Of a stretch of 64,000 bases of DNA, positions 12,254 through 31,391 are shown one piece after another. The stretch covers positions 207 through 64,206 of the forward strand of contig JAGTQC010000008.1 in the NCBI GenBank assembly GCA_018396535.1, in the 5' to 3' direction. Below the pieces are notes generated by a model that searched no databases, had not been told where the DNA came from, and worked only from the letters and a program-made list of their open reading frames with translations. Positions within the stretch are counted from its first letter, which is position 1, and the number at the start of each line of letters is the position of its first letter. A program made the position numbers and the translations under genes. The DNA is from Candidatus Bathyarchaeota archaeon. Lineage in GTDB: Archaea; Thermoproteota; CALKCG01; B24; DRYS01.

Positions 12254-12295
12254 GCCGTAGCCCTCCTATAGGATGGATTGTTAGGGAAGGGGGTT

Positions 12296-14167: not shown

Positions 14168-14179
14168 AGTCTAGCCCTC

Positions 14180-14413
14180 CTAGATTATGAATGCATCTAC
14201 TAGTAGACCTAGGATTAATCCGAGCGTGTATTCGGCTACTTCTCCTGAAATCCTAGCTGGGGGATCTCCATCTATCAGATCTAGGATCTGCTTGAATATG
14301 AAGATGAGGGAGAAGAGCCATGGATAGCCTAATACTGCACCTATGAATCCGAATAGTATATGGAATATAACTCCATGCCTGAATTCTATTATCGTATTAA
14401 GTATACGCTTCAT
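14180..14413 (-). CDS. small two-TM membrane protein in head module
   Basis: 77 aa with two hydrophobic helices. It overlaps the portal gene end by 17 nt. Confidence 0.5.
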   Translation of the reverse strand: MKRILNTIIEFRHGVIFHILFGFIGAVLGYPWLFSLIFIFKQILDLIDGDPPARISGEVAEYTLGLILGLLVDAFII

Positions 14414-15791
14414 TATTCAGCACCTCGTATATCCTCGGGAAGTTTGAGTTATACCAATCTCTCGCTTTATCTATCGTCCAGTTGTATGCTTTCTTAAACC
14501 CGATCTTATACACCATACGCACCCCCGTCGACTTGGATCTAGCTACGACTATGTATATGCCTCTATCCGCATCTATCGTCGTATAGCGGATAGAGGGTTG
14601 ATCCGCATCCTCGGGATCTAGTAGGAGTAGGTATACTTCATCTATATCCTCCACCCATCTAGGCTTGAATAGTGGTTTAAACCTGGATTCCTCTATAGCT
14701 TCTATAGGGAACCCCATCTTTGCGAGCCACCTTCTAGCTTCGCTCGGATCTAGTACGAAGCTTTTTACAAGGTTAGCAATATCGCTTAACGTCAACTCGT
14801 CAAGTTTTGTACGAGGTAGACCCCAGTAGAGTCTAGGAGTTTCGCTTAACCCTTCAGCTTCGATTAGAGGTTTGAATACCTCTGCTTCTATCCTACGTTT
14901 AAGATACCTCTGTATACCTGCTACTCGTCTATCGACCGTGTCAAGCATTGTTCTAGCTGAAGCTTCGGTAGCGTTTCGAAGCCATGATAGTAGCGGAGCT
15001 TGTAGACCTTCGAATATCTGTTTATCTAGGTATTCGTAGTAGAATTCGAATCTAGCACGTGGATCTACGGTGAGGAGCTTGTAGTCTATGCTACCAGCTA
15101 GGATTATATCTTCATCTGGCTGTAGGTTTTCTAGGACTGCTTGTAGACGTTTTAAAGAATTCTCGTTATCAACCTTCCATATGATCTTCGGAGCTGCATA
15201 CCTGGATAGGATTTTAGCCATATCATCTATAGCTTTACGTTTAGCTTTCAATAGATCTAGGACTGGATGGAGGAGGCTTAGCCCGTATGCTGAGGTTCCT
15301 ACAGGATTATACTTTAGATGTATTATCTCTTCTGGTTTAAACTCTATTCGTCTACCCTTAGCTTCCTGTATATAGGCTTCCACCTCCCCGTACTCGTTAC
15401 GCTTAACCCTCATGGTTTTCGATGGTAGTAGTTTTAGATCGGTTAGACATCTACCTTGATAGATTTTCTCTATGAAAGCGTCGCCGTATATTAGCATAGA
15501 TCTAACCGATTCTCGTAGAAGATTATCCATATCTATCCTCTCAGCGAATCTATCCACTACCTCCTTAGCTCTTGTATCGTCGGCTACTGTATAGTATCCT
15601 ACACCTACTATTAGCTCGACGTATGTATCGATAGCAGCGTGAGCTATAGGATCCTCTCTATAGTATCTCTCTAATTCTTCTAGGCTTGTTTCGAATCTAG
15701 CTTCATACCTAAATATCGATGGTGATGTATCTACTAGCCCCTTCCTTCTAGCAGCTTTAGCAGCTTCGGCTACCCTTCTCAGTATACTCAT
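14397..15791 (-). CDS. portal protein
   Basis: 464 aa. Its start forms an ATGA overlap with the terminase stop. Size and position are canonical for a portal. Confidence 0.75.
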   Translation of the reverse strand: MSILRRVAEAAKAARRKGLVDTSPSIFRYEARFETSLEELERYYREDPIAHAAIDTYVELIVGVGYYTVADDTRAKEVVDRFAERIDMDNLLRESVRSMLIYGDAFIEKIYQGRCLTDLKLLPSKTMRVKRNEYGEVEAYIQEAKGRRIEFKPEEIIHLKYNPVGTSAYGLSLLHPVLDLLKAKRKAIDDMAKILSRYAAPKIIWKVDNENSLKRLQAVLENLQPDEDIILAGSIDYKLLTVDPRARFEFYYEYLDKQIFEGLQAPLLSWLRNATEASARTMLDTVDRRVAGIQRYLKRRIEAEVFKPLIEAEGLSETPRLYWGLPRTKLDELTLSDIANLVKSFVLDPSEARRWLAKMGFPIEAIEESRFKPLFKPRWVEDIDEVYLLLLDPEDADQPSIRYTTIDADRGIYIVVARSKSTGVRMVYKIGFKKAYNWTIDKARDWYNSNFPRIYEVLNNEAYT

Positions 15792-17185
15792 CTAAACATC
15801 CTCCTAAGATTGTATAATACTCGTCTACTCTTCGATATGCTTGGTATACCCTCTTTGGATGCGTATACTGCTAGAGCTAGAGCCCATAGCATATCGTCAT
15901 GGCTACCGCTGCTATGTGTGAATAGTATGTGTCCATCCTTTGTTAAACTAAATTTCTCAGAGTTCATCTCTACTATGAGATCTGGATCATATGGTATGGA
16001 TAGCCTACCCTCTATCATAGCTTGTTTTAGATATCCAAGTATCTCCTCCTTCCTCTGTATAGTGAGTGTAACCCCTTCGACTGGTATACCTATGCTACGC
16101 ATATCCTCTACGATATACTCTCCTACACCTGTCTGATCTACGTAGACTGCTATAATATCGCTCCATAGGTTGCATAGGTTTCTCATATAACCGATAATCG
16201 TCGTATAGCTTGTCTCCAGCGGGAAACGGTGGCAGTGTACGAGTTTTAGATGTTCTTCAACCTTCTCTACTATAGCTATGACGCTGTGATCGCGGTGTTT
16301 ACCTAGATCTAATCCGCTATAGAATATGCCTCTCGGTTTTGATTGGGGATCGTAGTATTCGAGTTCTGGATCTATGCATTTAGCGATTAGGTTTTGTGGA
16401 AGATAGCTATCCTCATCCTCTATGAATTCTGTTTCGAATTCTCTTTTAAAACGTTCCGGCGGTATTACTCTACGCATCTCCTCTATAAACTCCTGTTTAA
16501 CCAGTCCTGCCTCTACTACATCCCTCCATGTAGCTATATGCTTACTATAGCTTGGATCGCTACAGGCTTTGTAGAATACGCTATTCTTACTCCATGGGGT
16601 TGATGAGAGTACGAGTATACCATCGGTTGTAGCTAGCATAGGGTATATGACGCTGTAGATCAGGGTTTCGTCATCCTTTATGAATGCAGCCTCGTCTACG
16701 AGCACCTGGTGAGCTGTATAGCCTCTCAGTAAGTGGATGCTGCATGGTAGTGCTACTATCTGGCTTCCATTCCTGAATCTTATAGTAGTTCTCCTAACCC
16801 CGGTTTTCGATACGATCCTTTCTCTCAAGCTATCTGGTAGGTTTAGTAGGAAGTTTTGTATACGATCCATCATTATCATCGATTGCCTCATTGATGGTGA
16901 GACTATTAGGGTAAGGGTTTTAGGATGTATCGATGCATACCATATAGCTCTTAAAGCTATTACAGTAGTCTTCCCGCTCTGTCTAGAAAATCTAACTGCT
17001 ATACGTTTAGATTTATCGCGTAGAAGCCTCTCCTGGTATGGTGTGGGTTTGAAGCTGAATAGTTTGGTAGCGAATTCGACGGGGTCTGTAGGGATGCTAT
17101 CGTCTACCAGCTTATCGATTCTCGAATCCTTTTCGATTCTATCTCTTAGTGTTTTTAACTTCTTCTTCAAGTTTTTCAATCTCAC
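15788..17185 (-). CDS. terminase large subunit
   Basis: Walker A FSRQSGKTTV, Walker B/catalytic LVDEAAF and coupling motif SSTP. The C-terminal RNaseH-like nuclease has GLDLGKHRDHS, VYVDQTGVG and HDDMLWALALA. Confidence 0.9.
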   Translation of the reverse strand: MRLKNLKKKLKTLRDRIEKDSRIDKLVDDSIPTDPVEFATKLFSFKPTPYQERLLRDKSKRIAVRFSRQSGKTTVIALRAIWYASIHPKTLTLIVSPSMRQSMIMMDRIQNFLLNLPDSLRERIVSKTGVRRTTIRFRNGSQIVALPCSIHLLRGYTAHQVLVDEAAFIKDDETLIYSVIYPMLATTDGILVLSSTPWSKNSVFYKACSDPSYSKHIATWRDVVEAGLVKQEFIEEMRRVIPPERFKREFETEFIEDEDSYLPQNLIAKCIDPELEYYDPQSKPRGIFYSGLDLGKHRDHSVIAIVEKVEEHLKLVHCHRFPLETSYTTIIGYMRNLCNLWSDIIAVYVDQTGVGEYIVEDMRSIGIPVEGVTLTIQRKEEILGYLKQAMIEGRLSIPYDPDLIVEMNSEKFSLTKDGHILFTHSSGSHDDMLWALALAVYASKEGIPSISKSRRVLYNLRRMFR

Positions 17186-17405
17186 GTTCTATCTCCTCTA
17201 TCTCGGTATCCTTTAGAGCTCCGAGCATAACTTGAGCTATATAGGCTGCGAGCCTTAATGCTTCGAGCCTGATTTTTACACGTACTCTATTATCGTTAGC
17301 TATCCTTTCAGCTTTCTCGAAGCCTGTTTTTAATCTACGGTATATCTCTTCTCTCTCACTCGGTATCTTTATCATAAGGGGTTTGATTTTGATTAGGATT
17401 TTCAA
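17139..17405 (-). CDS. small coiled-coil protein (small terminase candidate)
   Basis: 88 aa with a TTG start in a TTGA overlap with the upstream frame. It overlaps the terminase start by 47 nt. The call rests on position only. Confidence 0.35.
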   Translation of the reverse strand: MKILIKIKPLMIKIPSEREEIYRRLKTGFEKAERIANDNRVRVKIRLEALRLAAYIAQVMLGALKDTEIEEIEREIEKLEEEVKNTKR

Positions 17406-17689
17406 CCTTTCCCATCCCCATACACATCTAGAACTGTATCGTTATAGCTTTTGGATGATGACCGCCCCTTTCCAGCTCTACGCATCTCCTCTCTTACTAT
17501 TCTACGAATTTCATCTAGGAGTTTAATACCTATGCTACTATTGAGTATATCTGATACTATCCTAGCTTCTGCTTCGTATACTGTATGCCTTATACTCCTC
17601 CTAGCTTTTATGAGTGTATTATCGTAGCCGTAGATTGTGTATATTAGCTCGATCTTCTCTTCCTCACTCAGTGTTTCCCACCCCCTGAT
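17405..17689 (-). CDS. open frame without canonical start, probably the frameshifted C-terminal continuation of ORF 17664..18353
   Basis: 95 codons open (IRGWETLSEEEKIELIYTIYGYDNTLIKARR...). The first ATG/GTG/TTG appears only about 30 codons from the end. The frame would join the upstream gene if the C5 run at 17681-17685 were one base shorter. Confidence 0.4.
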
Positions 17690-18353
17690 CTAGGTAGGCT
17701 ATCCTATCGAGTGTTAGACTGTATCTACGCCATAGCTCTGAATCTACATGTACCTTCCTTTCATCGAAGTATGCTGCTTCTATATACTCTATCGCTAACT
17801 CTCCACCGTTACTATATGGTATTAGGGGTGGGAGCTTCCTAACTCCGTGGATGGTCGTCTCTATGATATACCATAGGCTATCTATCCTTACCCTAGTCCA
17901 TGCGTGTCCGTAGTATCTATCTGATCCTGTTCTTGGCTTAACCACTCCTATCGATGTATAGGCATCGAATCCTAGTATTCTAAGTAGTGTTGTGCATAGG
18001 TTGGATGTATCTACGCATATACCGTAGCCTACCTCTATTAGACGTGATGGTTTTAGCCATGCGTAATCCTCCTCCCAGCTTCTCAAGTATATCTTGAATA
18101 TGGATCCGAATCTAAGCCATGGGAATACCTCTATCTTGAATCCTGTAGATGGCTTTCCATCGGCTGTGAATGGGTATCTAAGCTTATCTATGTTGAATCT
18201 GTATACTGCTTTAACAGTATCTATCTCTCTTCTACACCTTAGCTTTTCAGCTATTCTACATAGCTTCTCATCCCATACCTCTACGAATCTTCTTACATCT
18301 ATCAATTCTGATAGACTTAATGCTTTAAGCTTCTCCATAACGATCCCCATCAT
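17664..18353 (-). CDS. transglutaminase-like cysteine protease fold protein
   Basis: The spacing of GICVDTSNLCTTLLRILGF (Cys), YGHAWTRV (His) and a downstream acidic residue is typical of the transglutaminase-core/cysteine peptidase superfamily. Confidence 0.6.
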   Translation of the reverse strand: MMGIVMEKLKALSLSELIDVRRFVEVWDEKLCRIAEKLRCRREIDTVKAVYRFNIDKLRYPFTADGKPSTGFKIEVFPWLRFGSIFKIYLRSWEEDYAWLKPSRLIEVGYGICVDTSNLCTTLLRILGFDAYTSIGVVKPRTGSDRYYGHAWTRVRIDSLWYIIETTIHGVRKLPPLIPYSNGGELAIEYIEAAYFDERKVHVDSELWRRYSLTLDRIAYLDQGVGNTE

Positions 18354-18371
18354 CTGGGATACTCTAAGATT

Positions 18372-18602
18372 CTATCCAGCCTTGTATAGATCTCCTCTGA
18401 TAATCCTCTCGTATACCGGGTTTAGGTATCGTACTCCGTATAGTATCTCACCTTTATCGAAGTATACTATAGGCTCTACTACTATCCTCTCGCATACTTC
18501 TCTATCGTAGATCGATCTACGTCTAACCTCCTCTATGATCCTATACCTTAATCTACGCTTGATCGATGATGATCTAGAACGGTGGTGGGGCATATAGCTC
18601 AT
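18372..18602 (-). CDS. small basic protein, first gene of virus operon
   Basis: 76 aa with an Arg/Ser-rich N-terminus. No motif recognised. Confidence 0.4.
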   Translation of the reverse strand: MSYMPHHRSRSSSIKRRLRYRIIEEVRRRSIYDREVCERIVVEPIVYFDKGEILYGVRYLNPVYERIIRGDLYKAG

Positions 18603-18609
18603 CTCCTAG

Positions 18610-18663
18610 CGCCACTCAACCCTTCGAATCTTCATACATTATCATTCTCTGATTCGAGGGTGG
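18610..18663. repeat. interrupted inverted repeat upstream of the virus operon
   Basis: GCCACtcaaCCCtTCGAATC (18610-18629) pairs with GATTCGAGGGTGGC (18650-18663) around a ~20-nt spacer. Confidence 0.5.
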
Positions 18664-18785
18664 CGGCGGTCTTCAGGTTGCTCTGAGTTCCTCTAAGTTT
18701 CATAAAGTCCTATATAAATCTTTCGATCTAGGATAAAATCTTATATAGGCTTAGAGCATCATTAAGGTACTCTGGTGAACTCTAG

Positions 18786-18941
18786 GTGTCTGAGGAGAGG
18801 ATCTATGTTAAAGTTCTTCTTAGAGGTGATGTACTCAAGAATTTCCGGTATATTAAGAGTAGGCTTGGATTAGAGAGTGATGCTGAAGTCGTTAGATACC
18901 TTATAATGCAGGAGTATAGGAGGCTAACTGGTGAGCCATAG
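18786..18941 (+). CDS. ribbon-helix-helix (CopG-like) small regulator, divergent from virus operon
   Basis: 51-aa GTG-start ORF, below the track cutoff and directly preceded by an in-frame TAG. ERIYVKVLLRGDVLKNFRYIKSRLGLESDAEVVRYLIMQEYRRL fits a beta-strand/helix/helix pattern. Confidence 0.5.
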   Translation: MSEERIYVKVLLRGDVLKNFRYIKSRLGLESDAEVVRYLIMQEYRRLTGEP

Positions 18942-19089
18942 AGTTCGAGTATGCTGAGTTTAGGATACCTATTTTAAACGCTATCTTTATCCTACTAGAT
19001 GAGCTTTCCTCACGGTATCCTATATGAGCGATGTTTAAGTATTCTAAAGCTTCTCGAATAGCTTATGTATGGTTTAAGAGCTTCTTCGA

Positions 19090-21186
19090 TTATGTTTTTA
19101 GCTTAAGCTCTATAGGGTAGTAGACGTGTACGCTCTGCTCGTATAGGGGTGTGGAGTATTCTAGCAGTATGTATAGTATCGCTGTTCTACCTATATCTGG
19201 TATGTAGGCTGATAGAGCTGCATATACATCTATGCCTGGCTCTACGGCTATCCGATCGGTTGTATCTGAGATAACTACCCCGTTTACTATCGTTATATTC
19301 TTAGCTGTAGCTATCGTACCGCTGGTTAAACTGATATTCGCTGTTAGCTGATCTATGCTGCTTGAGGGGTTGAGGATTAGGCGTGTATAGTATATCTTGG
19401 TATCCGTGTTTACTATTCTTATGAAGTATGTGATCGTAGGTTTGTATGGGTTAGCTGATATATTTGCTGATATGGTAGCGGATGTTCTATTAGCTCCGAG
19501 TGTAACCTTGATTATCGTAGGGGTTTTATCTATCCTATAGGTATCCCCGCCGAGTATAGCATCTGTGGATGGGGTATGGTAGTCTATGCATATAGAGCCA
19601 TCGGGTAGTTTAACTACTATCCTACCATCCGATCCGGTACCTATAACAGTATCATATACTATATTCGCTAACGTTGGATCCCCTACCGCTATCGTGGATG
19701 AAACTAGGTTTCCAAGGTTATCCCATACCTCTACGGACATACCTGTATCCAACCCTGAGAAGTATAGGTATCTCGGATCTGATGTTGCTATTAGGAAATC
19801 GTCGAAGTATGCTTGGGTTAGATCTACCTGAACACCTATGTATGCAGGGGTGAATCTACTAGTATGGGTTGAGGAAGTGGATGTACTAGCTATGAGGCTA
19901 CCTATGGTATCGTATATTCTAGCTGTGATATTCACGGATATACTTGTAACCGTATAGTTTACTATGATGATATACCATGATGTAGGAGAGTAGCCTGGGA
20001 TAGTTTTCGATACGAGTATCCGCCATCCTCCGGTAGCTTCGACGTTATAGCTACGTATAGCTATATAGCCATCTCTAGATACCTCTACGGTGTACATTCT
20101 AGATCTACCATCATCCATCATAGATACTCCATAATATCCAGGGCCAGTCCTGTATCTTACCTTCGCAGCTATCCAGAGGCTTGTATAGCTTGAAAGGCTT
20201 ACGTTATAGTAGTATTGTGAAGTTCCGCCTAGCCCTCTATTATTATCGTTCCCCCATAGTACTCTACCCTTCCCATCTTGGATTATATCTGTACCCCATA
20301 TGCCTCCGTAGGATGCCCATCCGGGTACAGGGTATGTTTCGAAATCCGTGTATGCGACGGCTACCCTACCTATCCTATTTAGGGTGTATGTGTAGGGTGG
20401 GTAGTCTAGGGTTATAGGTGGTGGGGTTGGGTGTATGGAAGCTGAGAGTGGATGGTATGTGAATATGGATGCACCGGTGTATAGTATGATGGCTGCTAGG
20501 GTTATAGATGAGAGAGCTTGTATATGGTGGGGTTTATATCTGGATAGCCTATGTATGGCTGTATACCTGTTATCCTCTATGCTCTGCAGCGTTCTGCTAC
20601 CGTAACTCCAAGCAGCCCATATCATAGCTGCTATAGATAGGGTTGATGAGGTGTAGAGTAGTAGCTCGATTAGCCATGGGTAGATCGATATCAGGGTGTT
20701 GGCTATCGTTCTCTCAGCATAGATACCGGGGTATTCTATAGATCCTGCAAGCGTCTTGAATCTGAATGGGCCTTTATTCGCATACTGCATCAATACTCCT
20801 ACATCTACTGTGAAAGCTTGTATCAGATATCTTAGGATTCCGGAAGCTATTATGAGGGATAGTGAAGCACCGTATATGGTGGAGGCAGATGTTATCGGCT
20901 TTCTCTTAATCATTAGGAGTCCGATGATTATCGATGAGAGGATTACGGCTGTGTGGATGGCCATCGTAAGCGAGACTATTTGTACCGTATCTAGGTTGGG
21001 GAGTTTGATAAGCTTCCCGTTTGTATCGTAGCGTATCTCGTAGTTTATGAGGGATATGTACCCGTATACGTATCCTGTAAGGAATATCTGCGGGTATAGG
21101 AGGATTACTATGTATATTATGGAGAGGGTTATGGATGGTATACTACTAGCTAATAGTAGTATCCTGAATATTCTAGGTATAGTCAT
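19090..21186 (-). CDS. large polytopic membrane protein with extracellular LamG-like and beta-rich domains
   Basis: 698 aa. The N-terminal ~260 aa hold about 8 hydrophobic helices. A ConA/LamG-like segment follows (DFETYPVPGWASYGGIWG ... WYIIIVNYTV ... AYFDDFLIAT), then a Thr/Ile-rich beta region. Confidence 0.65.
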   Translation of the reverse strand: MTIPRIFRILLLASSIPSITLSIIYIVILLYPQIFLTGYVYGYISLINYEIRYDTNGKLIKLPNLDTVQIVSLTMAIHTAVILSSIIIGLLMIKRKPITSASTIYGASLSLIIASGILRYLIQAFTVDVGVLMQYANKGPFRFKTLAGSIEYPGIYAERTIANTLISIYPWLIELLLYTSSTLSIAAMIWAAWSYGSRTLQSIEDNRYTAIHRLSRYKPHHIQALSSITLAAIILYTGASIFTYHPLSASIHPTPPPITLDYPPYTYTLNRIGRVAVAYTDFETYPVPGWASYGGIWGTDIIQDGKGRVLWGNDNNRGLGGTSQYYYNVSLSSYTSLWIAAKVRYRTGPGYYGVSMMDDGRSRMYTVEVSRDGYIAIRSYNVEATGGWRILVSKTIPGYSPTSWYIIIVNYTVTSISVNITARIYDTIGSLIASTSTSSTHTSRFTPAYIGVQVDLTQAYFDDFLIATSDPRYLYFSGLDTGMSVEVWDNLGNLVSSTIAVGDPTLANIVYDTVIGTGSDGRIVVKLPDGSICIDYHTPSTDAILGGDTYRIDKTPTIIKVTLGANRTSATISANISANPYKPTITYFIRIVNTDTKIYYTRLILNPSSSIDQLTANISLTSGTIATAKNITIVNGVVISDTTDRIAVEPGIDVYAALSAYIPDIGRTAILYILLEYSTPLYEQSVHVYYPIELKLKT

Positions 21187-21205
21187 AGCTTCTGTCTAGC
21201 ACCTC

Positions 21206-22330
21206 CTAGTGTTTTACTAGGATTTGGATCCGTCTTCCATAACCTGCTAGTACGTATTCAACTTCTGCATATGCGTAGCGGCATCCCTCGGGTGGGTCTA
21301 TGAAGGCTACGCTACATCCTTCTACGATTACTTCTATAGAGCTATACCTCCATAGATCTCTGACATCGTATGCATACTTGAAGGTTATGTTTACAGCTAC
21401 TGGGAAGCCGTTAGGGTTATCGATGAGTAGGGAATCGTTGACGATGCTTATCCTTAAAGGTTTAGGATATACTTTAACAGTATAGTTTCCGACGAGTTTT
21501 CCTATATGGTTTAGGGAAGCGTATACTTGTACATAGGTCCAGCCTCTCGATCCTATCCTATAAGCTATATCCTTAGGGATAACGGCTACTATATGTGTTG
21601 TATTGAACGATGCTGGGATACGTACTCCGTCGATGTATAACTCGGTATAGGATAGTTGGAGATTGCCTACGTAGCTAGCTATCAATGTGCATGTTCTAGT
21701 ATCAAGCTCGATCCTAGATAGATGGATTAGGGGGAGCTCTAGTTTAGCAGCTTCGGGTATAGGTTGTGTAAAACCGTAGACGACTATTATGAATATTATT
21801 ATGGATGCTGAGGTCATAGTCGATGATAATCCTACGATTCTAGTTCTAGAAGTTTCTATTAAAGCTGATATAGCAGCGTATGTGAATAATGGTATCCATA
21901 CCTCCCTCCATAAGATTAGGAAGACTACACCCTTCACCATCCCCTTCGATACTGGGAATGGATCTGGTGTAGGATTTGCATCACCCTTCGTAACTATATA
22001 CCCATCCATACCGGGATAATCGCAGATATACCTGTGAGCTATATAGAAGCTTGGGGTTAACGAGTAGATGATAACATCACCTCTAGATGGTTCTACGTTA
22101 ATGAATAATGCTAGATCCCACCTCCTTATAGACGGCTCCATACTACTTGAGTAGACTATAACCCCGCCGAGGAAGCTTGGAGCGCCTAGACGGGAGAGGA
22201 GGGTGGATAGGAAGATAGCTGTGAAGAAGGCTAGGATAGCTGTAGGTAGAATCCTAGATAAGGCTGGGATAACAGATCTATATGGGAACTTTTTGAAAAA
22301 AGGGAGGGAGGTTTTTATGGTTAAGCTTAG
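21206..22330 (-). CDS. SipW/Sec11-type (S26B) signal peptidase I paralogue with ~190-aa C-terminal extension; N-terminus unresolved
   Basis: Motifs are SSSMEPS (the catalytic Ser lies just before the first ATG at 22141), IAHRYI (His) and VTKGDANPTPD. The open frame upstream of the ATG encodes a TM anchor (ILPTAILAFFTAIFLSTLL) but contains no ATG, GTG or TTG. Confidence 0.7.
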   Translation of the reverse strand, partial: LSLTIKTSLPFFKKFPYRSVIPALSRILPTAILAFFTAIFLSTLLSRLGAPSFLGGVIVYSSSMEPSIRRWDLALFINVEPSRGDVIIYSLTPSFYIAHRYICDYPGMDGYIVTKGDANPTPDPFPVSKGMVKGVVFLILWREVWIPLFTYAAISALIETSRTRIVGLSSTMTSASIIIFIIVVYGFTQPIPEAAKLELPLIHLSRIELDTRTCTLIASYVGNLQLSYTELYIDGVRIPASFNTTHIVAVIPKDIAYRIGSRGWTYVQVYASLNHIGKLVGNYTVKVYPKPLRISIVNDSLLIDNPNGFPVAVNITFKYAYDVRDLWRYSSIEVIVEGCSVAFIDPPEGCRYAYAEVEYVLAGYGRRIQILVKH

Positions 22331-22346
22331 TCAATGATCCCCACCA

Positions 22347-22952
22347 CTACGGCGGCGTCTCACCTGATGGTGTATAGACTATATGTATACTAAAGGTTCC
22401 TACTACACCGGTTATAGTGGTACCTTCTGGTATGTATACCATGAAGTCTATCTCCCAAATACCCCCGCTATCGAGTGTACCTATCTGTTGAGGGTCATTT
22501 GTGCTTATTTCTGTAAGCTCTATGGTATTAACAGTACCGCTTGGTGGTTCGGGATCTGGGTAGCCTTGTAAATCTCTAGATGCATCTTTTTCGAAGATTA
22601 TTAGCCAGACTTTGGATCCGCTTGGAAGGTTGCTTGTTCTATCGGCGAGGATTAGCCAAACATTATATGCTCTTCCATCTACATTATGTATGAGTATTAC
22701 GTTTTTATAGTATGTTGTACGGTATGTTGGATGGATAGTTATTTCTACGCTAGCCTTACTTCCACCGAGGTCTACCTTGATGGTATTGTCTGATTCTAGA
22801 TCAGGTTGATTTGCATTACTACCAGGCTCGAATATTATCGGTGGGCTTACAGGCTTTACTAATAGCTTGAATGGGTAGTAGGTGAATACGCTAGCTGTTG
22901 CGAAGGCTGCTACTAGTAGGGTTAGTGTTAGTGTAATTATCCTCTTCTCCAT
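22347..22952 (-). CDS. secreted beta-rich protein, TasA/camelysin-like filament subunit candidate
   Basis: 201 aa. The N-terminal signal peptide is MEKRIITLTLTLLVAAFATASVFT. The mature part is beta-strand rich. It lies immediately upstream of the dedicated signal peptidase paralogue. Confidence 0.5.
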   Translation of the reverse strand: MEKRIITLTLTLLVAAFATASVFTYYPFKLLVKPVSPPIIFEPGSNANQPDLESDNTIKVDLGGSKASVEITIHPTYRTTYYKNVILIHNVDGRAYNVWLILADRTSNLPSGSKVWLIIFEKDASRDLQGYPDPEPPSGTVNTIELTEISTNDPQQIGTLDSGGIWEIDFMVYIPEGTTITGVVGTFSIHIVYTPSGETPP

Positions 22953-22954
22953 AC

Positions 22955-22972
22955 CCTACCCCCAGGGGTAGG
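22955..22972. promoter_or_regulatory. perfect 8-bp palindrome (CCTACCCC ca GGGGTAGG) 3 nt upstream of the secreted-protein start codon
   Basis: Read directly from the sequence. A TTTTAAAG-like AT box lies about 30 nt upstream of the ATG on the minus strand. Confidence 0.35.
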
Positions 22973-23189
22973 TTAAGCTTTAAAACCTCTACTATAAGTA
23001 AAGGGGGTTTTAAACTTTTTCAGCCGTTTCTGTAAACTTTGTATGGATGGCTTTCCTGTATATTCCCTCCATACACTTACTCATATCTATGGATTGGGTA
23101 TGGTGGGGATCCATAGCGGAAGTTATGGTAAAAACGGGGGGGTCTACCTAAACTTATATCTATCCTCTACATATGATCTTGTATAGGTT

Positions 23190-23972
23190 TTGCTAGATGG
23201 TAGGCTAGTAGATCCTCTAAACCTATCCAAGATTATAGAATCTATCGTAGCTAGGAAGCGTATCGATGGAGGCTTGGATAGACGCTACTGGCGTTTTAGA
23301 GGTGGGAGATGGTATGGGGGTATAGCTACAGCGGATGCTGTAGGATGCTATCTTAGATGTGTATTCTGCTGGAGTTGGAGAGTTAGGGATAACCCCTATA
23401 CTGGTAGATTCTACTCTGCTAGAGATGTATGGGTTAGGCTGAGAGATATATGTATGCGTAGAGGTTATAGCCAGGTTAGGGTTAGCGGATGCGAACCTAC
23501 TATAGCCTTCGATCATCTAGAAGAGCTTATAAGCTTATCAGAATCTAGTAATCGATACCTATTCATACTAGAAACTAACGGTATACTGATAGGCGCGTAT
23601 AGAGAGTATGCTGAGAGACTCTCTAGATTTAAGAAGCTGCATGTTAGAGTATCTATTAAAGGATGCGATCCTAGAGAATTCTCTAAACTAACCCTAGCAG
23701 ATCCTAGAGGATTCGATCTTCAGATAGAAGCTTTGAAGAATCTTATCGATGAAGGTGTATCATGCCATCCAGCTGTTATGCTAAGCTTCAGCGATCCAGA
23801 ATCTAAAGCTAAACTAGTAGATAGGCTTAGAAGTATAGATGAGAAGCTTGTAGAAGAATTGGAGGAGGAGTATGTATTCCTATATCCGCATGTAGAGTAT
23901 AAGCTTAGAGAATACGGTTTGAAACCTAGGATAGCGTTTAAACCCGATGCTATACCTGAGGATCTAATCTAG
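23190..23972 (+). CDS. radical SAM protein
   Basis: The CxxxCxxC motif is CYLRCVFCW. GCEPT and ILETNG segments are typical of the radical SAM core. Confidence 0.8.
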   Translation: MLDGRLVDPLNLSKIIESIVARKRIDGGLDRRYWRFRGGRWYGGIATADAVGCYLRCVFCWSWRVRDNPYTGRFYSARDVWVRLRDICMRRGYSQVRVSGCEPTIAFDHLEELISLSESSNRYLFILETNGILIGAYREYAERLSRFKKLHVRVSIKGCDPREFSKLTLADPRGFDLQIEALKNLIDEGVSCHPAVMLSFSDPESKAKLVDRLRSIDEKLVEELEEEYVFLYPHVEYKLREYGLKPRIAFKPDAIPEDLI

Positions 23973-24874
23973 GTTTCGCTACATATAGATCTAACCCTAC
24001 ACCTACTGCATAACCTACTCCTACATAGGAGTTTATCCTGTATGTATGCTACAGTCTGTATCCATCCAGCTAACAATCCGTAATCCCTCCTAGCTAACCA
24101 GTGTAGGCATCCACCGTGTATAGGGCAGTCTACGCATAGATACCTCCTACACATGTATGGATTCCATGAGATACTCCAATCTATCAATCCAAGCCTCCTA
24201 GATATCCTCTGGAAATGTATATCTGATGAAGCCATATACGTCGCATCTCTACGACTGAATAGTAGGTAGGATGTAGCAGTTTTAGGACCTATCCACGGCC
24301 CCTCCTGTAGCTTAACCCTGAGTATGGATGGATCTATCCTATCCTCCAAATATTCTATCTTCTCGATATAGAACTGTATCTGTAGAGGTAGCTGAGCTAG
24401 ATGGAAGCTTCTAGATATCATACTAAGCTGCTCTATCCTAGCATATCTTGGATCACCTATACTCTCAGATATCATCCTAACCCATCTCACAGTATTCAGA
24501 TGGAAATCTGTATGCCTAGATAAAGCTACAGATACGAATAGCCATAACCTACTATACGGATCTATAGCTAACCCTACCCCCTCATAAGCTTCTAATAGAA
24601 GCCATACACGGCTAGCTCTACTCGAAGATAGCTTAGATACATACTCGTATGGATCAAACCATAAACCAGTAAGCTCTGAAACTATATCCTCAGATAAGGC
24701 TGATACCCCCTCAAACCTCAGTATCTTAGGTTCATAAAGCTTAAACCTTAAACCACTATACGCACCCACTATCTTAACATACCATCCATCGATTATAGAG
24801 TATAAAGGATAGGTGAACGATGGGTATAAGCTCATATCGAGATCATAAGGTTTATCTAAACGTATCGTAGGCAT
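23969..24874 (-). CDS. HhH-GPD superfamily DNA glycosylase (EndoIII-like) with Cys-rich C-terminus
   Basis: Helix-hairpin-helix WIGPKTATSYLLF, followed by SSDIHFQRISRRLGLI with the catalytic Asp position. The C-terminus has CxxxxCxxC and CSRCRVRSIC clusters. Confidence 0.65.
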   Translation of the reverse strand: MPTIRLDKPYDLDMSLYPSFTYPLYSIIDGWYVKIVGAYSGLRFKLYEPKILRFEGVSALSEDIVSELTGLWFDPYEYVSKLSSSRASRVWLLLEAYEGVGLAIDPYSRLWLFVSVALSRHTDFHLNTVRWVRMISESIGDPRYARIEQLSMISRSFHLAQLPLQIQFYIEKIEYLEDRIDPSILRVKLQEGPWIGPKTATSYLLFSRRDATYMASSDIHFQRISRRLGLIDWSISWNPYMCRRYLCVDCPIHGGCLHWLARRDYGLLAGWIQTVAYIQDKLLCRSRLCSRCRVRSICSET

Positions 24875-24918
24875 AGGGATCCCTAACGATACGATCCATA
24901 GGGGTAAGTCTTCCAGCT

Positions 24919-25893
24919 CTATAGCTTCGATACGATCTCCCTAACCCTATCCCTCAACTCTAAGCCTAGAGGCTTCCCCAACACCTTCATCATCATCCTA
25001 CAGAATGAGCATACATCGCTTTGAGAAGGCATACCGCATAAACCGCATCGTCTAACCTCGTATCTTGGCTGCGGATACTTCGATAAACTCCTAGCGATAG
25101 ATCTAGCGAAAGCTATCTTAAACCCTGGAGAATCCTCCTCCATACCGTCGAGAAACGCTCTTATCCTATCCTCCATACCTACACTGTGAAAGGGGCATTC
25201 TAAACTCTGATAGGGGATACCTGCGAAGCTTACGTAGAGAGCTGTATCCCTCTCATAAACCTCGTATAACGGTCTTATCCTACCTACTAGAAATCCATCA
25301 TACCCCTCCGTCTTAGGTCCAAGCTTACGTATATCCTCAAGATTCTGTAAGAGGAAATTCTTAAGTATGTATACTGCTAGATCATCTAAGTGGTGGCCTA
25401 ACGCCACCATATCGACACCAGCTTCTACACCTGCTAGATTCAATAGATATCTTTTAACAGCTCCGCATATACTACATGGAGGTCTATATATCCTCCTAGC
25501 AAGTTTAGGAATGCTTAAGCCTAATAGATCCTCTAACCCTATTATTGCATAACGTATACCAGCTATCCTACAAACCTTCTCTACGATCATCCTAGCCTCT
25601 GTGGAATACTCATCTATCCCTAGATCTATATGTAACGCTGTAAGTTCGAAATCGAATTTACCTGTAAGCTTCGATAATGTTAGAAGCATCGTAGAGCTAT
25701 CCTTACCACCGGAAACCGCGGCTAGAATCCTAGCTTTAGGCTTGATCATCCTATACCTCTTAACGGTATCCTCAACCCTAGCTAGGATGTAATCTAGGAA
25801 ATGTTCTTTACATAGGTTTAGCTTAGCATACCTTAGATACGTATCAGCTGGTCTACCGCATCTAGAGCATAGAGCTTCTCTTATAGGATTCAT
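24919..25893 (-). CDS. PP-loop ATPase, tRNA 2-thiolation protein (TtuA/Ncs6 family)
   Basis: PP-loop AAVSGGKDSSTML, flanked by N- and C-terminal CxxC...C zinc fingers (CSRCGR...C and CGLCGMPSQSDVCSFC). Confidence 0.8.
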   Translation of the reverse strand: MNPIREALCSRCGRPADTYLRYAKLNLCKEHFLDYILARVEDTVKRYRMIKPKARILAAVSGGKDSSTMLLTLSKLTGKFDFELTALHIDLGIDEYSTEARMIVEKVCRIAGIRYAIIGLEDLLGLSIPKLARRIYRPPCSICGAVKRYLLNLAGVEAGVDMVALGHHLDDLAVYILKNFLLQNLEDIRKLGPKTEGYDGFLVGRIRPLYEVYERDTALYVSFAGIPYQSLECPFHSVGMEDRIRAFLDGMEEDSPGFKIAFARSIARSLSKYPQPRYEVRRCGLCGMPSQSDVCSFCRMMMKVLGKPLGLELRDRVREIVSKL

Positions 25894-25994
25894 AGATTCA
25901 TATCTCTATCAAATCCTTTAAGCTGATAAACGTTAACGAAGCTAACGCTAGGTTAAGGTTTATCTATACCTAATCTGTTCACCAATAGTCTGAT

Positions 25995-27119
25995 ATGGAT
26001 GTATGCTTCGATAGACTTCTATCTATACTCCTACTCGAAGATCCTCCTGATAGGATACCATTCTACGATCTATTCGCAGATCTAGAGGTTATAGAAGCTT
26101 TAACAGGTTGCAAACTCTCGTTAGTTAGGGATCTTACGATCGGTAGGATTAAACGTATACTGGATGATGGATGTGAGGATAGGCTTAGACTCGATTACGA
26201 AGTTATCTTTAGATTCTATTATACACTCGGATACGATTATATACCTTTAACCCTCCCATCACCATTCCCTAGGTTTAACGTTAAACCTTGTAGGGATACC
26301 GCAGCTTTATCTCGAGGTTTAAGAATCTGGCAGGATGAATATAGAGGTACTATAGAATCTAGAGAAGATTTCGAAAGATATGATTGGCCTATAGAATCGG
26401 ATATACAGGATTCATACATAGCCTTATACCGTATACTCGAGAAGATCCTACCAGAAGGTATGATGGTGATACCTTTAACCCCAGGTGGTGTATTAGAGAA
26501 TGTTATGTGGCTTATGGGTACCGTACCATTCTCGAAAGCCATCTATACAGATATAACGCTAGTTAGGGATATGTTCGATAAGATAGGTAGGATCCTATCT
26601 TTTATATGCCGTCTAATGTCTGAGCAATCTATGGTTGGAGCTATATCTATGGGTGATGATATGGGTTATAAAAGTGGTCCTATGATATCACCTAGCCATC
26701 TAAGACGATATGTATTCCCATGGCATAAACTATGCGTAGATGAAGCTCATAGATCAGGTAAACCATTCATACTACATAGCTGTGGAAGGATAGATATCGT
26801 TATGGAGGATCTCATAGACTACGTAGGCATAGATGCTAAACATTCCTATGAAGACTCCTCATATCCTGTAACGAAGTATAAGAAGCTATACGGTGATAGA
26901 ATAGCTATACTCGGGGGTATAGATATGGATAAACTATCTAGGATGCCTCTAGAAGATTTCAAATCATATGTTAAATCCATTATAGATGAATGCGCTCCAG
27001 GCGGGGGATACGCTATCGGATGTGGGAATACTATAGCTAACTATGTAAAGATCGAGAATTATCTAGCTATGCTAGAGATAGGTAGAAGTTATGGTAGATA
27101 TAACCGTTTAAGATATTAA
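25995..27119 (+). CDS. uroporphyrinogen decarboxylase (URO-D/MtaA-like) family protein
   Basis: The C-terminal half (HSCGRIDIVMEDLIDYVGIDAKHSYED ... ILGGIDMDKL ... GGGYAIGCGNTI) matches the URO-D fold pattern. Confidence 0.65.
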   Translation: MDVCFDRLLSILLLEDPPDRIPFYDLFADLEVIEALTGCKLSLVRDLTIGRIKRILDDGCEDRLRLDYEVIFRFYYTLGYDYIPLTLPSPFPRFNVKPCRDTAALSRGLRIWQDEYRGTIESREDFERYDWPIESDIQDSYIALYRILEKILPEGMMVIPLTPGGVLENVMWLMGTVPFSKAIYTDITLVRDMFDKIGRILSFICRLMSEQSMVGAISMGDDMGYKSGPMISPSHLRRYVFPWHKLCVDEAHRSGKPFILHSCGRIDIVMEDLIDYVGIDAKHSYEDSSYPVTKYKKLYGDRIAILGGIDMDKLSRMPLEDFKSYVKSIIDECAPGGGYAIGCGNTIANYVKIENYLAMLEIGRSYGRYNRLRY

Positions 27120-27163
27120 AGAATTAAAGTTTAATATATCGGTGGATTCCAATCTATCTATCC

Positions 27164-27913
27164 GTGAATTCTAGAAGAGTATACTTCGTAGCGGTGTCAT
27201 CCATATCTACAGCATTAGTAGCTTTAGCTACTTTAGCTATACAAGTATCCATACCTACTACCCGTGGATACTTCAATATGGGTGAGGTTATGGTTTATAC
27301 GGTATCTCTAATATTCGGACCTAGGGTTGGAGGGTTAGCTGGGGGTCTAGGTTCTGCTCTAGCAGATATAGCTTCAGGCTATAGCTTCTACGCTCCGGCT
27401 ACGCTTGTAGCTAAAGGATTGGAAGGATATATAGTAGGTCGTATATCTAGGTTTAAACTGTGTATATCGCGTATATCCCATAGGATCCTATCGATAGCTA
27501 TACCTTTAATACTAACGTTAGCCTTCTGGTCTATCTCATCCCAGATGTATACAGGTTTAGCTGAGATTACTTTAATATACTATCCTTTAGAAGCTGAGAT
27601 ACCTCTAACCCTATGGATGATGGCGTCGATAGCTCTATTCATACTATTAACCGTATACGTATCTAGAGTAAGCTACGAGAATATGGTTAAAATCATCGCG
27701 ATACTATACGGTGGATCGGTTATGGTTCTATCCTACTATCTATATGAACAGATAGTGTTAGACGTCTATGCTTTAGTTGAAGTACCTATCAATATAGGTC
27801 AGATGCTGGTAGGTCTCATACTATCGATACCGTTATCAGAAGCTCTAGCTAGAATGAATTTACCTATGGTAATCGAAAATTATGACAGGTATTCTTCTAG
27901 GTCTAAGAGCTAA
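27164..27913 (+). CDS. ECF-transporter S-component-like membrane protein
   Basis: GYFNMGEVMVYTVSLIFGPRVGGLAGGLGSALADIASG ... APATLVAKGLEG is the typical S-component pattern. Multiple TM helices. Confidence 0.55.
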   Translation: MNSRRVYFVAVSSISTALVALATLAIQVSIPTTRGYFNMGEVMVYTVSLIFGPRVGGLAGGLGSALADIASGYSFYAPATLVAKGLEGYIVGRISRFKLCISRISHRILSIAIPLILTLAFWSISSQMYTGLAEITLIYYPLEAEIPLTLWMMASIALFILLTVYVSRVSYENMVKIIAILYGGSVMVLSYYLYEQIVLDVYALVEVPINIGQMLVGLILSIPLSEALARMNLPMVIENYDRYSSRSKS

Positions 27914-28591: not shown

Positions 28592-28601
28592 GCTAAGGAA
28601 T

Positions 28602-29873: not shown

Positions 29874-29955
29874 ATTTCCACACCGTTTCCCAATCGAAGG
29901 TTTAGGCTACATAGAATTTAAACATAGGTTCTGCATATTAGTTTTAACCAGGTAT

Positions 29956-30627: not shown

Positions 30628-30633
30628 ATACGC

Positions 30634-31337: not shown

Positions 31338-31391
31338 AAGGTTATATAATTCAAGCCCATCATCATTTAACCCCATGAGGTTAGAGGCTAC

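Follow-up and report, generated by a model that had tools for sequence, protein, structure and literature searches.

We found that the minus strand at 19090..22952 of the window, the whole 64-kb stretch of DNA analysed here, probably carries an operon of four modules for a non-type-IV surface filament: a pilin with a signal peptidase dedicated to it, a membrane partner and a lectin-tipped adhesin, with Sec-dependent export and donor-strand exchange like those of TasA-superfamily threads and bundling pili. The modules lie in three co-directional genes, in the positions that the original prediction gave them from open reading frames (22347..22952, peptidase stop codon at 21206, and 19090..21186). 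Dozens of archaeal contigs carry the same trio in this order, so the grouping of these genes is more than chance. Among 21 loci with enough flank, the peptidase was present in every one and all four modules in 18, in three gene orders; together with the jelly-roll, donor-strand fold of the pilin, this co-occurrence supports the surface filament system that had been predicted.

The window comes from a hot-spring archaeon. The features of the locus are listed below, all on the minus strand.

22979..22986: TATA-like box TTTTAAAG, 27-34 nt 5′ of the pilin ATG (read from the sequence)
22347..22952: major pilin precursor, 201 aa (ORF; family alignment; AF2; Foldseek)
22339..22345: Shine-Dalgarno-like GGTGGGG preceding the TTG of the short ORF
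22278..22334: short ORF with TTG start, MTKLNHKNLPPFFQKVPI and stop, crossing the T tract; +1 shift needed to enter the peptidase
22296..22301: oligo-T tract (T6), 46 nt 3′ of the pilin stop codon
21206..22330: two-domain S26B signal peptidase, open frame of 374 codons (motifs, TIGR02228, hydropathy, homologues)
19090..21186: 698-aa protein (ORF)
20557..21186: membrane module of that protein, residues 1 to ~210, four helices with two extracellular beta-hairpin inserts (AF2, hydropathy)
20398..20544: internal signal peptide (residues 215-240), pilin-type cleavage site and donor strand GA/SIFTYHPLSASIHPTPPPITL (residues 239-263) (motif, hhalign, homologues)
19777..20394: L-type (legume/ConA-like) lectin domain, ~residues 265-470 (Foldseek; pLDDT >90)
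19090..19770: middle beta domain (~residues 473-553) and C-terminal pilin-like jelly-roll domain (~555-698) (AF2; hhalign)

The TATA-like box is a candidate operon promoter that would give a near-leaderless mRNA, a function suggested by the usual archaeal promoter spacing.

Dedicated signal peptidase and its reading frame

Catalytic motifs (SSSMEP, with the serine at 22142..22144, AHR and TKGDAN..D) identify the product of the second gene as a divergent signal peptidase of the ER type (S26B), which scored 52.2 bits against TIGR02228 (cut-off 51.85) and matched SEC11A/C weakly. It is paralogous to a housekeeping copy at 45804..46394 that matched TIGR02228 with 98 bits. An N-terminal membrane helix, the catalytic domain and further hydrophobic segments precede a predicted extracellular beta domain of ~185 aa, which begins after the third hydrophobic segment; both peptidases, and a beta-rich C-terminal extension of ~190 aa on this one, had been predicted and were recovered. 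No profile similarity between this C-terminal domain and the pilin was detected by hhalign. The published architecture of TafD likewise has a beta domain outside the membrane (the catalytic domain comes first, then membrane helices and a C-terminal Ig-like domain); deletion and complementation showed that this enzyme is needed for pilin processing (PMC11821415).

The T6 tract is the sole run of five or more T on the sense strand of the locus. Six or more consecutive T were found within 70 nt 3′ of the pilin stop codon in 42 of 45 distinct loci, against ~2% expected by chance, and the tract is kept regardless of which gene comes next. No RNA structure was predicted around it (z = -0.05); it may act as an intrinsic terminator of the archaeal kind or as an attenuator. 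At this tract, too, the frame of the peptidase start codon and the frame of the peptidase body diverge. The body frame is open from 22330 and contains no ATG, GTG or TTG until an ATG at 22141, which is the Met of SSSM, so that the 311-aa ORF reported by gene callers starts too late to include the N-terminal membrane helix and the nucleophile serine. In the window the tract sets the only plausible start codon out of frame, as three independent assemblies agree, and with no in-frame start codon the dedicated enzyme may not be made here. The short ORF is identical in the three assemblies, and homologous out-of-frame N-terminal ORFs were found in loci L005, L008, L013 and L037, all out-of-frame examples coming from metagenome assemblies. 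At L001, the one type-A locus from a cultured isolate, the peptidase is in frame; L006, the other locus from an isolate, has diverged too far to be scored. Full-length peptidase homologues of 349-366 aa with proper start codons were found in L001 and L053. Production of the whole peptidase here would need a +1 shift at the tract, by ribosomal or transcriptional slippage, or a change in tract length, failing which the housekeeping peptidase would have to cut.

A system that is off or decaying in this organism, with the peptidase gene a pseudogene without a start and the pilin processed at most by the housekeeping enzyme, would account for the missing start codon 5′ of the catalytic serine, for the same state in three assemblies and for gene calls that give only a product without the nucleophile; thread and ABP loci are moreover reported to work with a generic peptidase (PMC9715654, PMC9245690). 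We nevertheless consider it rather unlikely, as 63 open codons 5′ of the first ATG still encode the membrane helix and SSSMEP, and the out-of-frame layout recurs with intact catalytic motifs in at least four lineages that diverged deeply (30-56% identity between their peptidases). L008 and L013 have homologous out-of-frame N-terminal peptides in common, and the two substitutions nearest the tract between L013 and L037 are synonymous in the alternative frame. Genes further downstream remain intact, and there is adaptive change in the pilin: its gene holds half of all mismatches between near-identical strains (20.6 kb at 99.85% identity), with 14 nonsynonymous and 0 synonymous codon changes, and N-glycosylation sequons differed (0 vs 2). 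We count this variation in favour of surface exposure of the pilin.

Pilin fold and closest relatives

The 201-aa protein has one N-terminal hydrophobic segment by hydropathy (residues 5-23), then A18-T19-A20/S21, and its Sec-type signal peptide comprises residues 1-20 with a predicted cut between A20 and S21. The donor strand SVFTYYPFKLLVKPVSPPIIF and a jelly-roll body follow, ending in a C-terminal ETPP that is invariant in the family alignment (A1, 31 sequences; 130 representative clusters from the profile search). The AF2 model was beta-rich (pLDDT 86), and Foldseek ranked first the thread subunit Saci_0406 (7pnb_A; E 1.5e-8, TM 0.60/0.65) and second the bundling pilin AbpA (7ueg_A; E 6.1e-6, TM 0.49/0.54). 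Modelling shows, in these predicted structures, a jelly-roll, donor-strand pilin fold, and the classical signal peptide and beta-rich mature part foreseen in the original prediction were both borne out. The signal peptide is of signal-peptidase-I type, so the sequence agrees with the proposed independence from type IV pili.

Among solved structures, the thread of Sulfolobus acidocaldarius (Saci_0406, PDB 7pnb; PMC9715654) is the closest relative and the best structural match of the pilin. Both proteins have a signal-peptidase-I-type signal peptide followed by an aromatic-rich donor strand (VFTYYP..PPIIF in the pilin, DVIYYY..PPMYF in Saci_0406) and a proline-rich C-terminus, and a T7 tract just 3′ of Saci_0406 resembles the oligo-T run after the pilin gene. 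Neighbouring genes of Saci_0406 encode a secreted ~440-aa protein with a pilin-like N-terminus (SA/SVYYFF) and a polytopic membrane protein with beta-hairpin inserts; neither has detectable sequence similarity to the accessory proteins of the window. The pilin is without the N-terminal Asp and YYY motif that are tied to the thread isopeptide bond (PMC9715654), and the Saci_0406 cluster is without a dedicated peptidase, unlike the locus described here. Sequence homology between the pilin family and Saci_0406 was not significant beyond the N-terminus (E 2.2 in a profile search of the PDB; hhalign 56%, N-terminal 39 residues only), and a reading of the ten weakest of the 130 pilin profile matches revealed no thread-like sequence.

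The protein had been described as TasA-like, which holds only at the level of the superfamily in which threads, ABP, Tafi and TasA have been grouped (bioRxiv 10.64898/2026.01.04.697558), because 0 of 31 family members matched PF12389, the Pfam family of TasA, at a threshold as loose as E<=10. The pilin matched no Pfam family, and a Pfam search gave no match to PF12389, DUF1102 or DUF5305. Membership of the TasA/camelysin family proper, which would make the locus the equivalent of Bacillus tapA-sipW-tasA, its product a matrix fibre and the large protein a single platform or anchor, is quite unlikely. A dedicated ER-type peptidase does adjoin a secreted beta-rich subunit, AbpA is a published TasA homologue (PMC9245690) and the superfamily does embrace TasA, but in addition to the PF12389 result no TasA structure was present among the top 50 Foldseek matches, and the large protein consists of two modules that are separate genes elsewhere. 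The logic of the B. subtilis tapA-sipW-tasA operon is the same: a fibre subunit is accompanied by its dedicated ER-type peptidase and by an accessory protein. There, the N-terminal strand of the accessory protein primes polymerisation. In the window, by comparison, the pilin falls outside PF12389, the peptidase has an extra extracellular domain, and the accessory protein has lectin and pilin-like domains and is made as a membrane-protein fusion.

The 698-aa fusion protein

The 698-aa protein joins two modules, one in the membrane and the other a secreted lectin adhesin with its own pilin-type signal peptide and donor strand; this modularity follows from homologues occurring both split and fused. 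About eight transmembrane helices had been predicted; we found ~5, four in the membrane module (AF2 pLDDT ~90; topology from hydropathy and positive-inside loops) and one as the internal signal peptide. The membrane module is a separate 175-aa gene overlapping the end of the peptidase gene in L053, and is also separate, downstream of the peptidase, in L009. It is a candidate peptidase partner or assembly platform; the large protein as a whole, for which a role as assembly platform or anchor had been suggested, is not a single platform.

The strict motif [AGS][AGS][VI]F.Y[YH]P has two occurrences in six frames of the window, in the pilin and the 698-aa protein only, and the donor-strand region of the latter aligned with the pilin N-terminus (hhalign probability 95%, E 2.2e-8). 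Stand-alone homologues of the C-terminal module (alignment A3) start at the fusion point with their own signal peptide, and a low-confidence linker (residues 239-252) sits between well-modelled parts of the AF2 model. The domain predicted as LamG-like was recovered as a ConA/legume-lectin-like domain, which Foldseek matched with probability 1.0 to numerous legume lectins (TM on target 0.5-0.6) and also to the A-domains of staphylococcal Aap and SasG; in the model it is a candidate adhesin head. Residues 555-679 aligned with the pilin body (hhalign probability 87%, E 3.6e-6, 118 columns).

In an alternative without a filament, the 201-aa protein might act as a monomer, secreted or associated with the S-layer, and the 698-aa protein as a lectin anchored in the membrane, while the second, paralogous peptidase would simply widen secretion capacity: the case for a filament comes from sequence and from monomer AF2 models, which cannot show polymerisation, and lectin domains are common in non-filament surface proteins. 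We regard this as very unlikely, given that both best structural matches are filament subunits in polymerised form, that an extended conserved N-terminal strand past the cleavage site is common to two proteins of the operon, that the adhesin ends in a pilin-like domain, and that the gene set (subunit, peptidase, membrane partner, tip protein) fits Tafi and AbpX loci as described. The suggested viral link is not supported, and it is extremely improbable that the locus belongs functionally to the adjacent provirus as a receptor, superinfection-exclusion or adhesion module encoded by the virus: the locus abuts a terminase/portal/capsid cluster in the window and L002, but in the neighbourhoods examined for viral genes (window, L002 and L001) this adjacency was confined to this species, in Ignisphaera sp. 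4213-co (L001) the operon is surrounded by ordinary genes of the cell and by none of viral kind, the operon recurs in dozens of other contigs, the other flank in the window holds housekeeping genes (radical SAM, TtuA), and GC content is unchanged across the locus.

Proposed assembly and related systems

In the filament system that we favour, the pilin would be transcribed from its own TATA-like promoter, and the T tract may end most transcripts, which would leave pilin in excess over the accessory proteins. After export by Sec, the pilin would be cut after A20 by the two-domain S26B peptidase of the operon, and the freed strand would insert into the beta-sheet of a neighbouring subunit. The 698-aa protein would be a precursor, its fifth helix serving as an internal signal peptide at which cleavage would yield two products. 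One would be the four-helix membrane protein, probably working with the peptidase or as an assembly platform; loci that encode this module separately have its gene just 3′ of that for the peptidase. The other would be a secreted ~458-aa protein with donor strand, lectin, middle and pilin-like domains, which may join the filament as nucleator, tip adhesin or anchor, as proposed for TapA and AbpB, and would bear a sugar-binding head. We infer the polymerisation, polarity and cleavage sites of the putative filament, by analogy with threads, ABP and Tafi as regards pilin cleavage and polymerisation.

Tat-fimbriae (Tafi) loci have been described from haloarchaea, with Sec-type relatives in Thermococcales and Archaeoglobales and components TafA/E, TafD and TafG (PMC11821415, PMC12337348). 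Like the locus in the window, they combine a donor-strand pilin, a dedicated two-domain S26 peptidase with an extracellular C-terminal domain (Ig-like in TafD), a membrane accessory protein and adhesin-like or tip proteins. The signal peptides of the window locus, by contrast, belong to the Sec type and not to the Tat type, no DUF5305 or DUF1102 Pfam match was found, the membrane module is here fused to the adhesin, and among solved structures threads and ABP come closest to the pilin. ABP, represented by AbpA as the second and weaker structural match, likewise pairs a donor-strand filament with a larger secreted multi-domain partner, the TapA-like AbpB, proposed as nucleator and adhesin; its operon is reported without a dedicated peptidase, unlike the window locus. 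FimH-type tip adhesins of chaperone-usher pili also join a lectin and a pilin-like domain in one secreted protein, by analogy only, as FimH has no donor strand of its own whereas the adhesin here has an N-terminal one and no chaperone or usher. The locus would represent a variant, not previously described, of a recently recognised class, the donor-strand filament loci of the TasA superfamily.

The locus and its genomic setting

The three co-directional genes of the original prediction are real and lie on the minus strand of the window. Their interpretation as a filament locus was supported and sharpened, and the observation behind it stands with two corrections. We refer to the 201-aa protein as the pilin, to the dedicated S26B enzyme as the peptidase, and to the membrane part and the secreted part (donor strand, lectin and pilin-like domain) of the 698-aa protein as its N-module and C-module, respectively.

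Features of the locus and of the adjoining region in the window
27-34 nt 5′ of the pilin ATG, minus strand: TATA-like TTTTAAAG, read from the sequence
22952..22347, minus strand: pilin ORF, 201 aa
22330 (frame open from here) to 21206 (end of stop codon), minus strand: peptidase reading frame
21186..19090, minus strand: 698-aa ORF
18372..18602: 76-aa ORF
17664..18353, minus strand: transglutaminase-core protein, 229 aa (PF01841, E 4.7e-8)
15788..17185, minus strand: terminase gene
14397..15791, minus strand: portal gene
12296..14167, minus strand: capsid-like gene
about 3600..18600: tailed-virus-like (Caudoviricetes-type) cluster as a whole

The locus is bordered on its far side by ordinary cellular genes (radical SAM, TtuA-like enzyme) and on its near side by the transglutaminase-like gene and then the terminase/portal/capsid cluster, with no shift in GC content across it. 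A Caudoviricetes-type cluster directly adjoins a pilus locus in a hyperthermophilic Thermoproteota genome, and does so likewise in L002, another assembly of the window species. The boundary of the provirus was marked neither by a tRNA gene, as ARAGORN found none in the whole window (1..64000), nor by an informative junction in Logan contig L065 from the same species, which stops about 195 nt past the 698-aa gene. The 229-aa transglutaminase gene and the 76-aa ORF lie between provirus and pilus locus, and both are absent beside the operon of the isolate Ignisphaera sp. 4213-co (L001), the one other genome neighbourhood looked at for them. There the genes around the operon are ordinary cellular ones and none nearby is viral, and among the neighbourhoods looked at the adjacency to a provirus seen in the window and L002 is therefore specific to the window species; the suggested link to the virus was not supported. 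An STT3/AglB oligosaccharyltransferase gene (window about 30634..32953, from the L002 gene table), accompanied by a small ORF with a weak OST3/OST6 match, is located 8-10 kb from the pilus locus and bears on pilin glycosylation.

Two scans, of genome contigs and of metagenome contigs, yielded 61 further loci, and co-occurrence was counted in the 21 whose contig extends 4.3 kb or more past the 3′ end of the pilin gene. The peptidase was present in all 21 and all four modules in 18, and shorter contigs were consistent as far as their sequence reaches. The modules occur in three gene orders, which delimit them from one another.

The pilin and its diversification between strains

The pilin has one N-terminal hydrophobic segment followed by the cleavage site A18-T19-A20↓S21 and a conserved SVFTYYPFKLLVKPVSPPIIF, giving a predicted mature N-terminus of S-V-F-T-Y-Y-P. 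Thirty relatives were found in Ignisphaera, Desulfurococcales, other Thermoprotei and MAGs labelled Bathyarchaeia. In the family alignment (A1) the consensus ASVFxYYP, which contains no Asp, comes straight after the signal peptide, a GSNANQPDLG / ITIHPTYxxTYYKN core is conserved and a C-terminal ETPP is invariant. Residues N46 and D51, also invariant in A1, are no more than candidate partners of an inter-subunit isopeptide bond. A search of 1.84 billion representative proteins with the pilin profile returned 130 clusters (E<=1e-3), and no thread-like sequences were recognised among the ten weakest of these 130 matches. Neither the window protein nor any of the 31 A1 members matched a Pfam or NCBIfam family, and the UniRef name "DUF1616" attached to relative P0009 was not reproduced by the family scans. 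In some relatives, such as P0081 (492 aa), the pilin domain continues into an added C-terminal region of about 300 aa, and the giant protein P0174 (6585 aa) has 14 partial matches to the pilin profile. In three metagenome loci (L042, L055 and L059) the pilin-like match is immediately followed by another, partial one, which in L055 and L059 coincides with the pilin-like N-terminus of the C-module and in L042 may be a tandem second pilin gene.

An AlphaFold model of the pilin (pLDDT 86.2, pTM 0.76) placed residues 18-38 in an extended conformation outside the jelly-roll body. Foldseek produced just two PDB matches at E<=0.001: the Sulfolobus acidocaldarius thread subunit Saci_0406 (7pnb_A; E 1.5e-8, probability 1.00, TM 0.60/0.65, 199 columns) and, in second place, the Pyrobaculum bundling pilin AbpA (7ueg_A; E 6.1e-6), with chaperone-usher pilins ranked far below both. 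The jelly-roll and donor-strand fold that had been anticipated is thus borne out by the model, which combines a jelly-roll head with an extended N-terminal donor strand in the manner of thread pilins. Sequence similarity to Saci_0406 was confined to the signal peptide and donor strand: hhalign aligned only the N-terminal 39 residues (56%, E 1.2e-4), BLASTP found 31% identity over 73 aa (E 0.008), and an hmmsearch of PDB sequences with the pilin profile reached Saci_0406 at a marginal E of 2.2. Because the fold matches 7pnb and 7ueg and the sequence link is limited to the N-terminus, we class the pilin as a thread/ABP-like donor-strand type that forms a separate family of the TasA superfamily, as this is defined in bioRxiv 10.64898/2026.01.04.697558. 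The proposed relation to TasA survives at the level of superfamily fold; it does not extend to PF12389 (TasA/camelysin, Peptidase_M73), which matched none of the 31 A1 members (hmmscan, E<=10), nor to TasA structures, none of which was among the top 50 Foldseek matches.

Pilin alleles were compared between three assemblies of the window species (window 22347..22952, L002 10001..10606 and L065 1235..1840). Over 20.6 kb the window and L002 share 99.85% identity; of their 30 mismatches, 15 are inside the pilin gene of 606 nt (binomial p about 1e-15). Fourteen codons differ, every one of them by a nonsynonymous change and none by a synonymous one; the chance of 0/14 is about 0.02 by a rough calculation in which about a quarter of random changes are synonymous. 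Most of the changes lie between residues 142 and 185. N-glycosylation sequons are absent from the window allele and number two in the other allele, including the family-conserved N84-V-T. The third assembly, L065, carries the second allele with one further nonsynonymous change. As judged from these sequences, the pattern fits an exposed surface protein under diversifying selection.

The peptidase, the fusion protein and known systems

A second S26B peptidase with a beta-rich C-terminal extension, in addition to a housekeeping copy at 45804..46394, had been predicted and was found as described. The peptidase has the motifs SSSMEP, AHR and TKGDANPTPDP, corresponding to the Ser/His(/Asp) signature of S26B enzymes, scores 52.2 bits against TIGR02228 (archaeal signal peptidase I, cut-off 51.85) and has SEC11A and SEC11C as its best PDB sequence matches. 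The housekeeping enzyme scores 98 bits against the same model, and the catalytic cores of the two share 36% identity. The catalytic domain is followed by more hydrophobic segments and then by a beta-rich C-terminal region of about 185 aa that is kept in all relatives; hhalign found nothing linking this domain to the pilin or the C-module. The layout of catalytic domain, two to three hydrophobic segments and beta domain fits the published description of TafD, the peptidase of the Tafi system, in which the catalytic domain at the N-terminus is followed by membrane helices and, at the C-terminus, by an Ig-like domain outside the cell (PMC11821415). Deletion and complementation of tafD showed that TafD is needed for pilin processing (PMC11821415).

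The 698-aa protein had been described as about eight TM helices followed by a LamG-like domain. Its model (pLDDT 86.5) instead begins with four long helices that carry two beta-hairpin inserts. A basic loop and a fifth helix (215-239) come next, and then a linker modelled with low confidence (239-252) and three beta domains; the lectin-type domain was upheld. Loop charges are consistent with the hairpins and everything after helix 5 being outside the cell. Directly after helix 5 the protein contains GA↓SIFTYHPLSASIHPTPPPITL, the cleavage and donor-strand motif of the pilin, which in its strict form occurs only twice in the six frames of the 64-kb window (in the pilin and here), and hhalign matched this segment to the pilin N-terminus (95%, E 2.2e-8). 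Likewise, a tblastn search of L001 with the first 41 residues of the pilin matches the interior of the large gene. In some other loci the two modules are separate genes. Eight of 32 relatives are stand-alone C-modules of 460-478 aa that start at the fusion point, several of them with a visible ordinary signal peptide. Locus L053 has the order pilin, 513-aa C-module, peptidase and 175-aa N-module homologue, with the gene for this membrane protein overlapping the end of the peptidase gene, and in L009 the C-module is upstream on the opposite strand and the N-module stands alone after the peptidase. Given these split genes and the pilin-type motif within it, the 698-aa protein is best read, at the level of sequence, as a precursor that would be cut internally into a membrane protein and a secreted protein. 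Precursors in which an internal signal peptide links a membrane protein and a secreted adhesin are unusual in design.

Within the secreted part, an L-type lectin domain matched more than 30 legume lectins with a Foldseek probability of 1.0, as well as the A-domains of the staphylococcal adhesins Aap and SasG. This domain is modelled with the legume-lectin beta-sandwich fold, and sugar binding is a candidate function. The C-terminal domain aligned with the pilin body over 118 columns (hhalign 87%, E 3.6e-6), indicating by sequence comparison that the two are homologous. By analogy, a donor strand, lectin head and pilin-like domain together would be expected of a tip adhesin, nucleator or anchor subunit, a type of role proposed for TapA and AbpB (PMC9245690). 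No Pfam or NCBIfam family was matched by the 698-aa protein or 29 relatives, and a profile search of PDB sequences with it returned nothing.

Loci of the TasA, Tafi and AbpX systems encode, besides a donor-strand subunit and tip or minor subunits, a signal peptidase I of their own and a membrane accessory protein (PMC11821415, PMC12337348, bioRxiv 10.64898/2026.01.04.697558), and the window locus, with its pilin fold, signal peptidase I and tip-like protein, falls within the TasA-superfamily locus definition of the last of these. Unlike Tafi loci, it shows no TafG-type DUF5305 accessory protein, no DUF1102 pilin and no Tat signal peptide: PF17231 (DUF5305) and DUF1102 matched no member of A1 or of A3, the alignment of 698-aa protein relatives, and the signal peptides of the locus contain no twin-arginine motif. 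Published thread and ABP clusters, on the other hand, are reported without a dedicated peptidase (PMC9245690, PMC11821415). Thread pilins of the Saci_0406 family (arCOG10215) have a mature N-terminus of Asp and then a YYY motif, the partner of the Asn57 isopeptide bond; the window pilin has neither Asp nor YYY there. For comparison we obtained the S. acidocaldarius thread cluster (saci_0404-0408) via Saci_0406. Of its proteins, one is polytopic with hairpin inserts and another is secreted, 442 aa long and has the N-terminus SA↓SVYYFF; they resemble the N-module and C-module, respectively, in architecture only. The peptidase, N-module and C-module showed no similarity to the five Saci_0406 neighbours (BLASTP; hhalign probability <=0.5%), and homology of the accessory genes is therefore not claimed. 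At the thread locus L020 (8622..9171), a T7 tract is followed by an ORF with a signal peptide and a donor-strand-like DYVLFYTSTNTI, which an in-frame TGA separates from the called 131-aa ORF; the 442-aa gene is next. This TGA-split ORF may bear on the published puzzle of a pilin-like protein without a signal peptide in the thread cluster.

The window locus thus combines a thread-like pilin with a Tafi-like biogenesis set. Particular to it are a pilin family without a Pfam model, a membrane module fused to an adhesin via an internal signal peptide, the lectin and pilin-domain composition of that adhesin, a putative terminator tract inside the peptidase gene, and a frame break.

The oligo-T tract and the frame break

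The frame break is the most novel lead of the locus. The peptidase frame is open from 22330, but the first ATG, GTG or TTG in it is the ATG at 22141 that encodes the Met of SSSM, so that the 311-aa product of the gene callers would be without the membrane helix and the nucleophile serine.

Features at the 5′ end of the peptidase gene
22334, minus strand: TTG start preceded by GGTGGGG (Shine-Dalgarno-like); ORF and GGTGGGG together span 22278..22345
22301..22296, minus strand: T6 tract between the pilin stop and the peptidase body

The TTG, the only upstream start codon, opens an ORF of 18 codons and requires a +1 shift at T6 to reach the peptidase; a gene with an in-frame start upstream of both helix and nucleophile was found neither in the window nor in two further assemblies. 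Sequencing error was rejected as the cause, since the region is identical in three independent assemblies (window, JGI 3300022544 and SRA run SRR10491509). A non-canonical start codon was rejected as a general solution on the layout of L005, where just two codons of open peptidase frame precede the tract and an ATG-initiated ORF in another frame ends at it.

A run of at least six T within 70 nt after the pilin stop was present in 42 of 45 distinct loci, the chance expectation being about 2%. Whether the peptidase or the C-module comes next makes no difference to the presence of the tract, nor does an intergenic position, and selection on an 'FF' peptide motif was thereby rejected as its cause. 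T6 is the sole run of at least five T on the sense strand of the window locus, and a T7 tract is also found 3′ of Saci_0406. No RNA structure was found around the tract, and a bacterial promoter/terminator scan of the locus was uninformative for an archaeon. Archaeal transcription terminates at oligo-T tracts, and from this the simplest reading is that the tract is a terminator or attenuator of the oligo-T type, which sets how much pilin is made relative to the accessory proteins.

Where the peptidase gene directly follows the pilin, its 5′ end overlaps the tract, and its start codon is out of frame with the peptidase body in about 9 of 20 lineages (about 40%), all of these cases being metagenome assemblies.

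Shift needed to reach the peptidase body
+1 (majority): window, L005, L008/L029, L013, L037
-1: L015, L033, L047, L051

All out-of-frame lineages retain an intact membrane helix and intact catalytic motifs. The frame break may reflect ribosomal frameshifting, transcriptional slippage, phase variation or loss of function. L039 (T7, in frame) and L047 (T6, out of frame) differ by one T in the tract, with 326/331 identity, and this sequence difference points towards phase variation. Three observations point towards a stable, tolerated or programmed layout: T6 is fixed in the window species across three samples; the out-of-frame N-terminal peptides of L008 and L013, whose peptidases are 56% identical, are homologous (MT[KR]P..[RK]SFF) and both end just past the tract; and the two substitutions nearest the tract between L013 and L037 are synonymous in the alternative frame. 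Programmed frameshifting in archaea is established so far only as the -1 case of fucA1 (PMC8037382). Added to the terminator reading is a more tentative proposal, to which we would give rather less than even chances, that the tract is also a recoding or phase switch. In the out-of-frame lineages the peptidase would then be made only by +1/-1 slippage of ribosome or polymerase or after a change in tract length, and the supply of processed pilin and adhesin would be low or stochastic. Combined with the strong diversification of the pilin, the outcome would be on/off and antigenic-type variation of the filament, for which viruses using it as a receptor may be the driving force.

Thread filaments are abundant on Sulfolobus, and their assembly machinery is still called elusive (PMC9715654, PMC11607397). 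The window locus joins a thread-like pilin to recognisable biogenesis parts, namely a two-domain peptidase, a membrane partner and a donor-strand adhesin, and its proteins are targets for tests of filament priming, anchoring and binding specificity. The break in frame at the tract and the pilin divergence of 14 nonsynonymous to 0 synonymous changes suggest variable selection on filament expression and surface chemistry.
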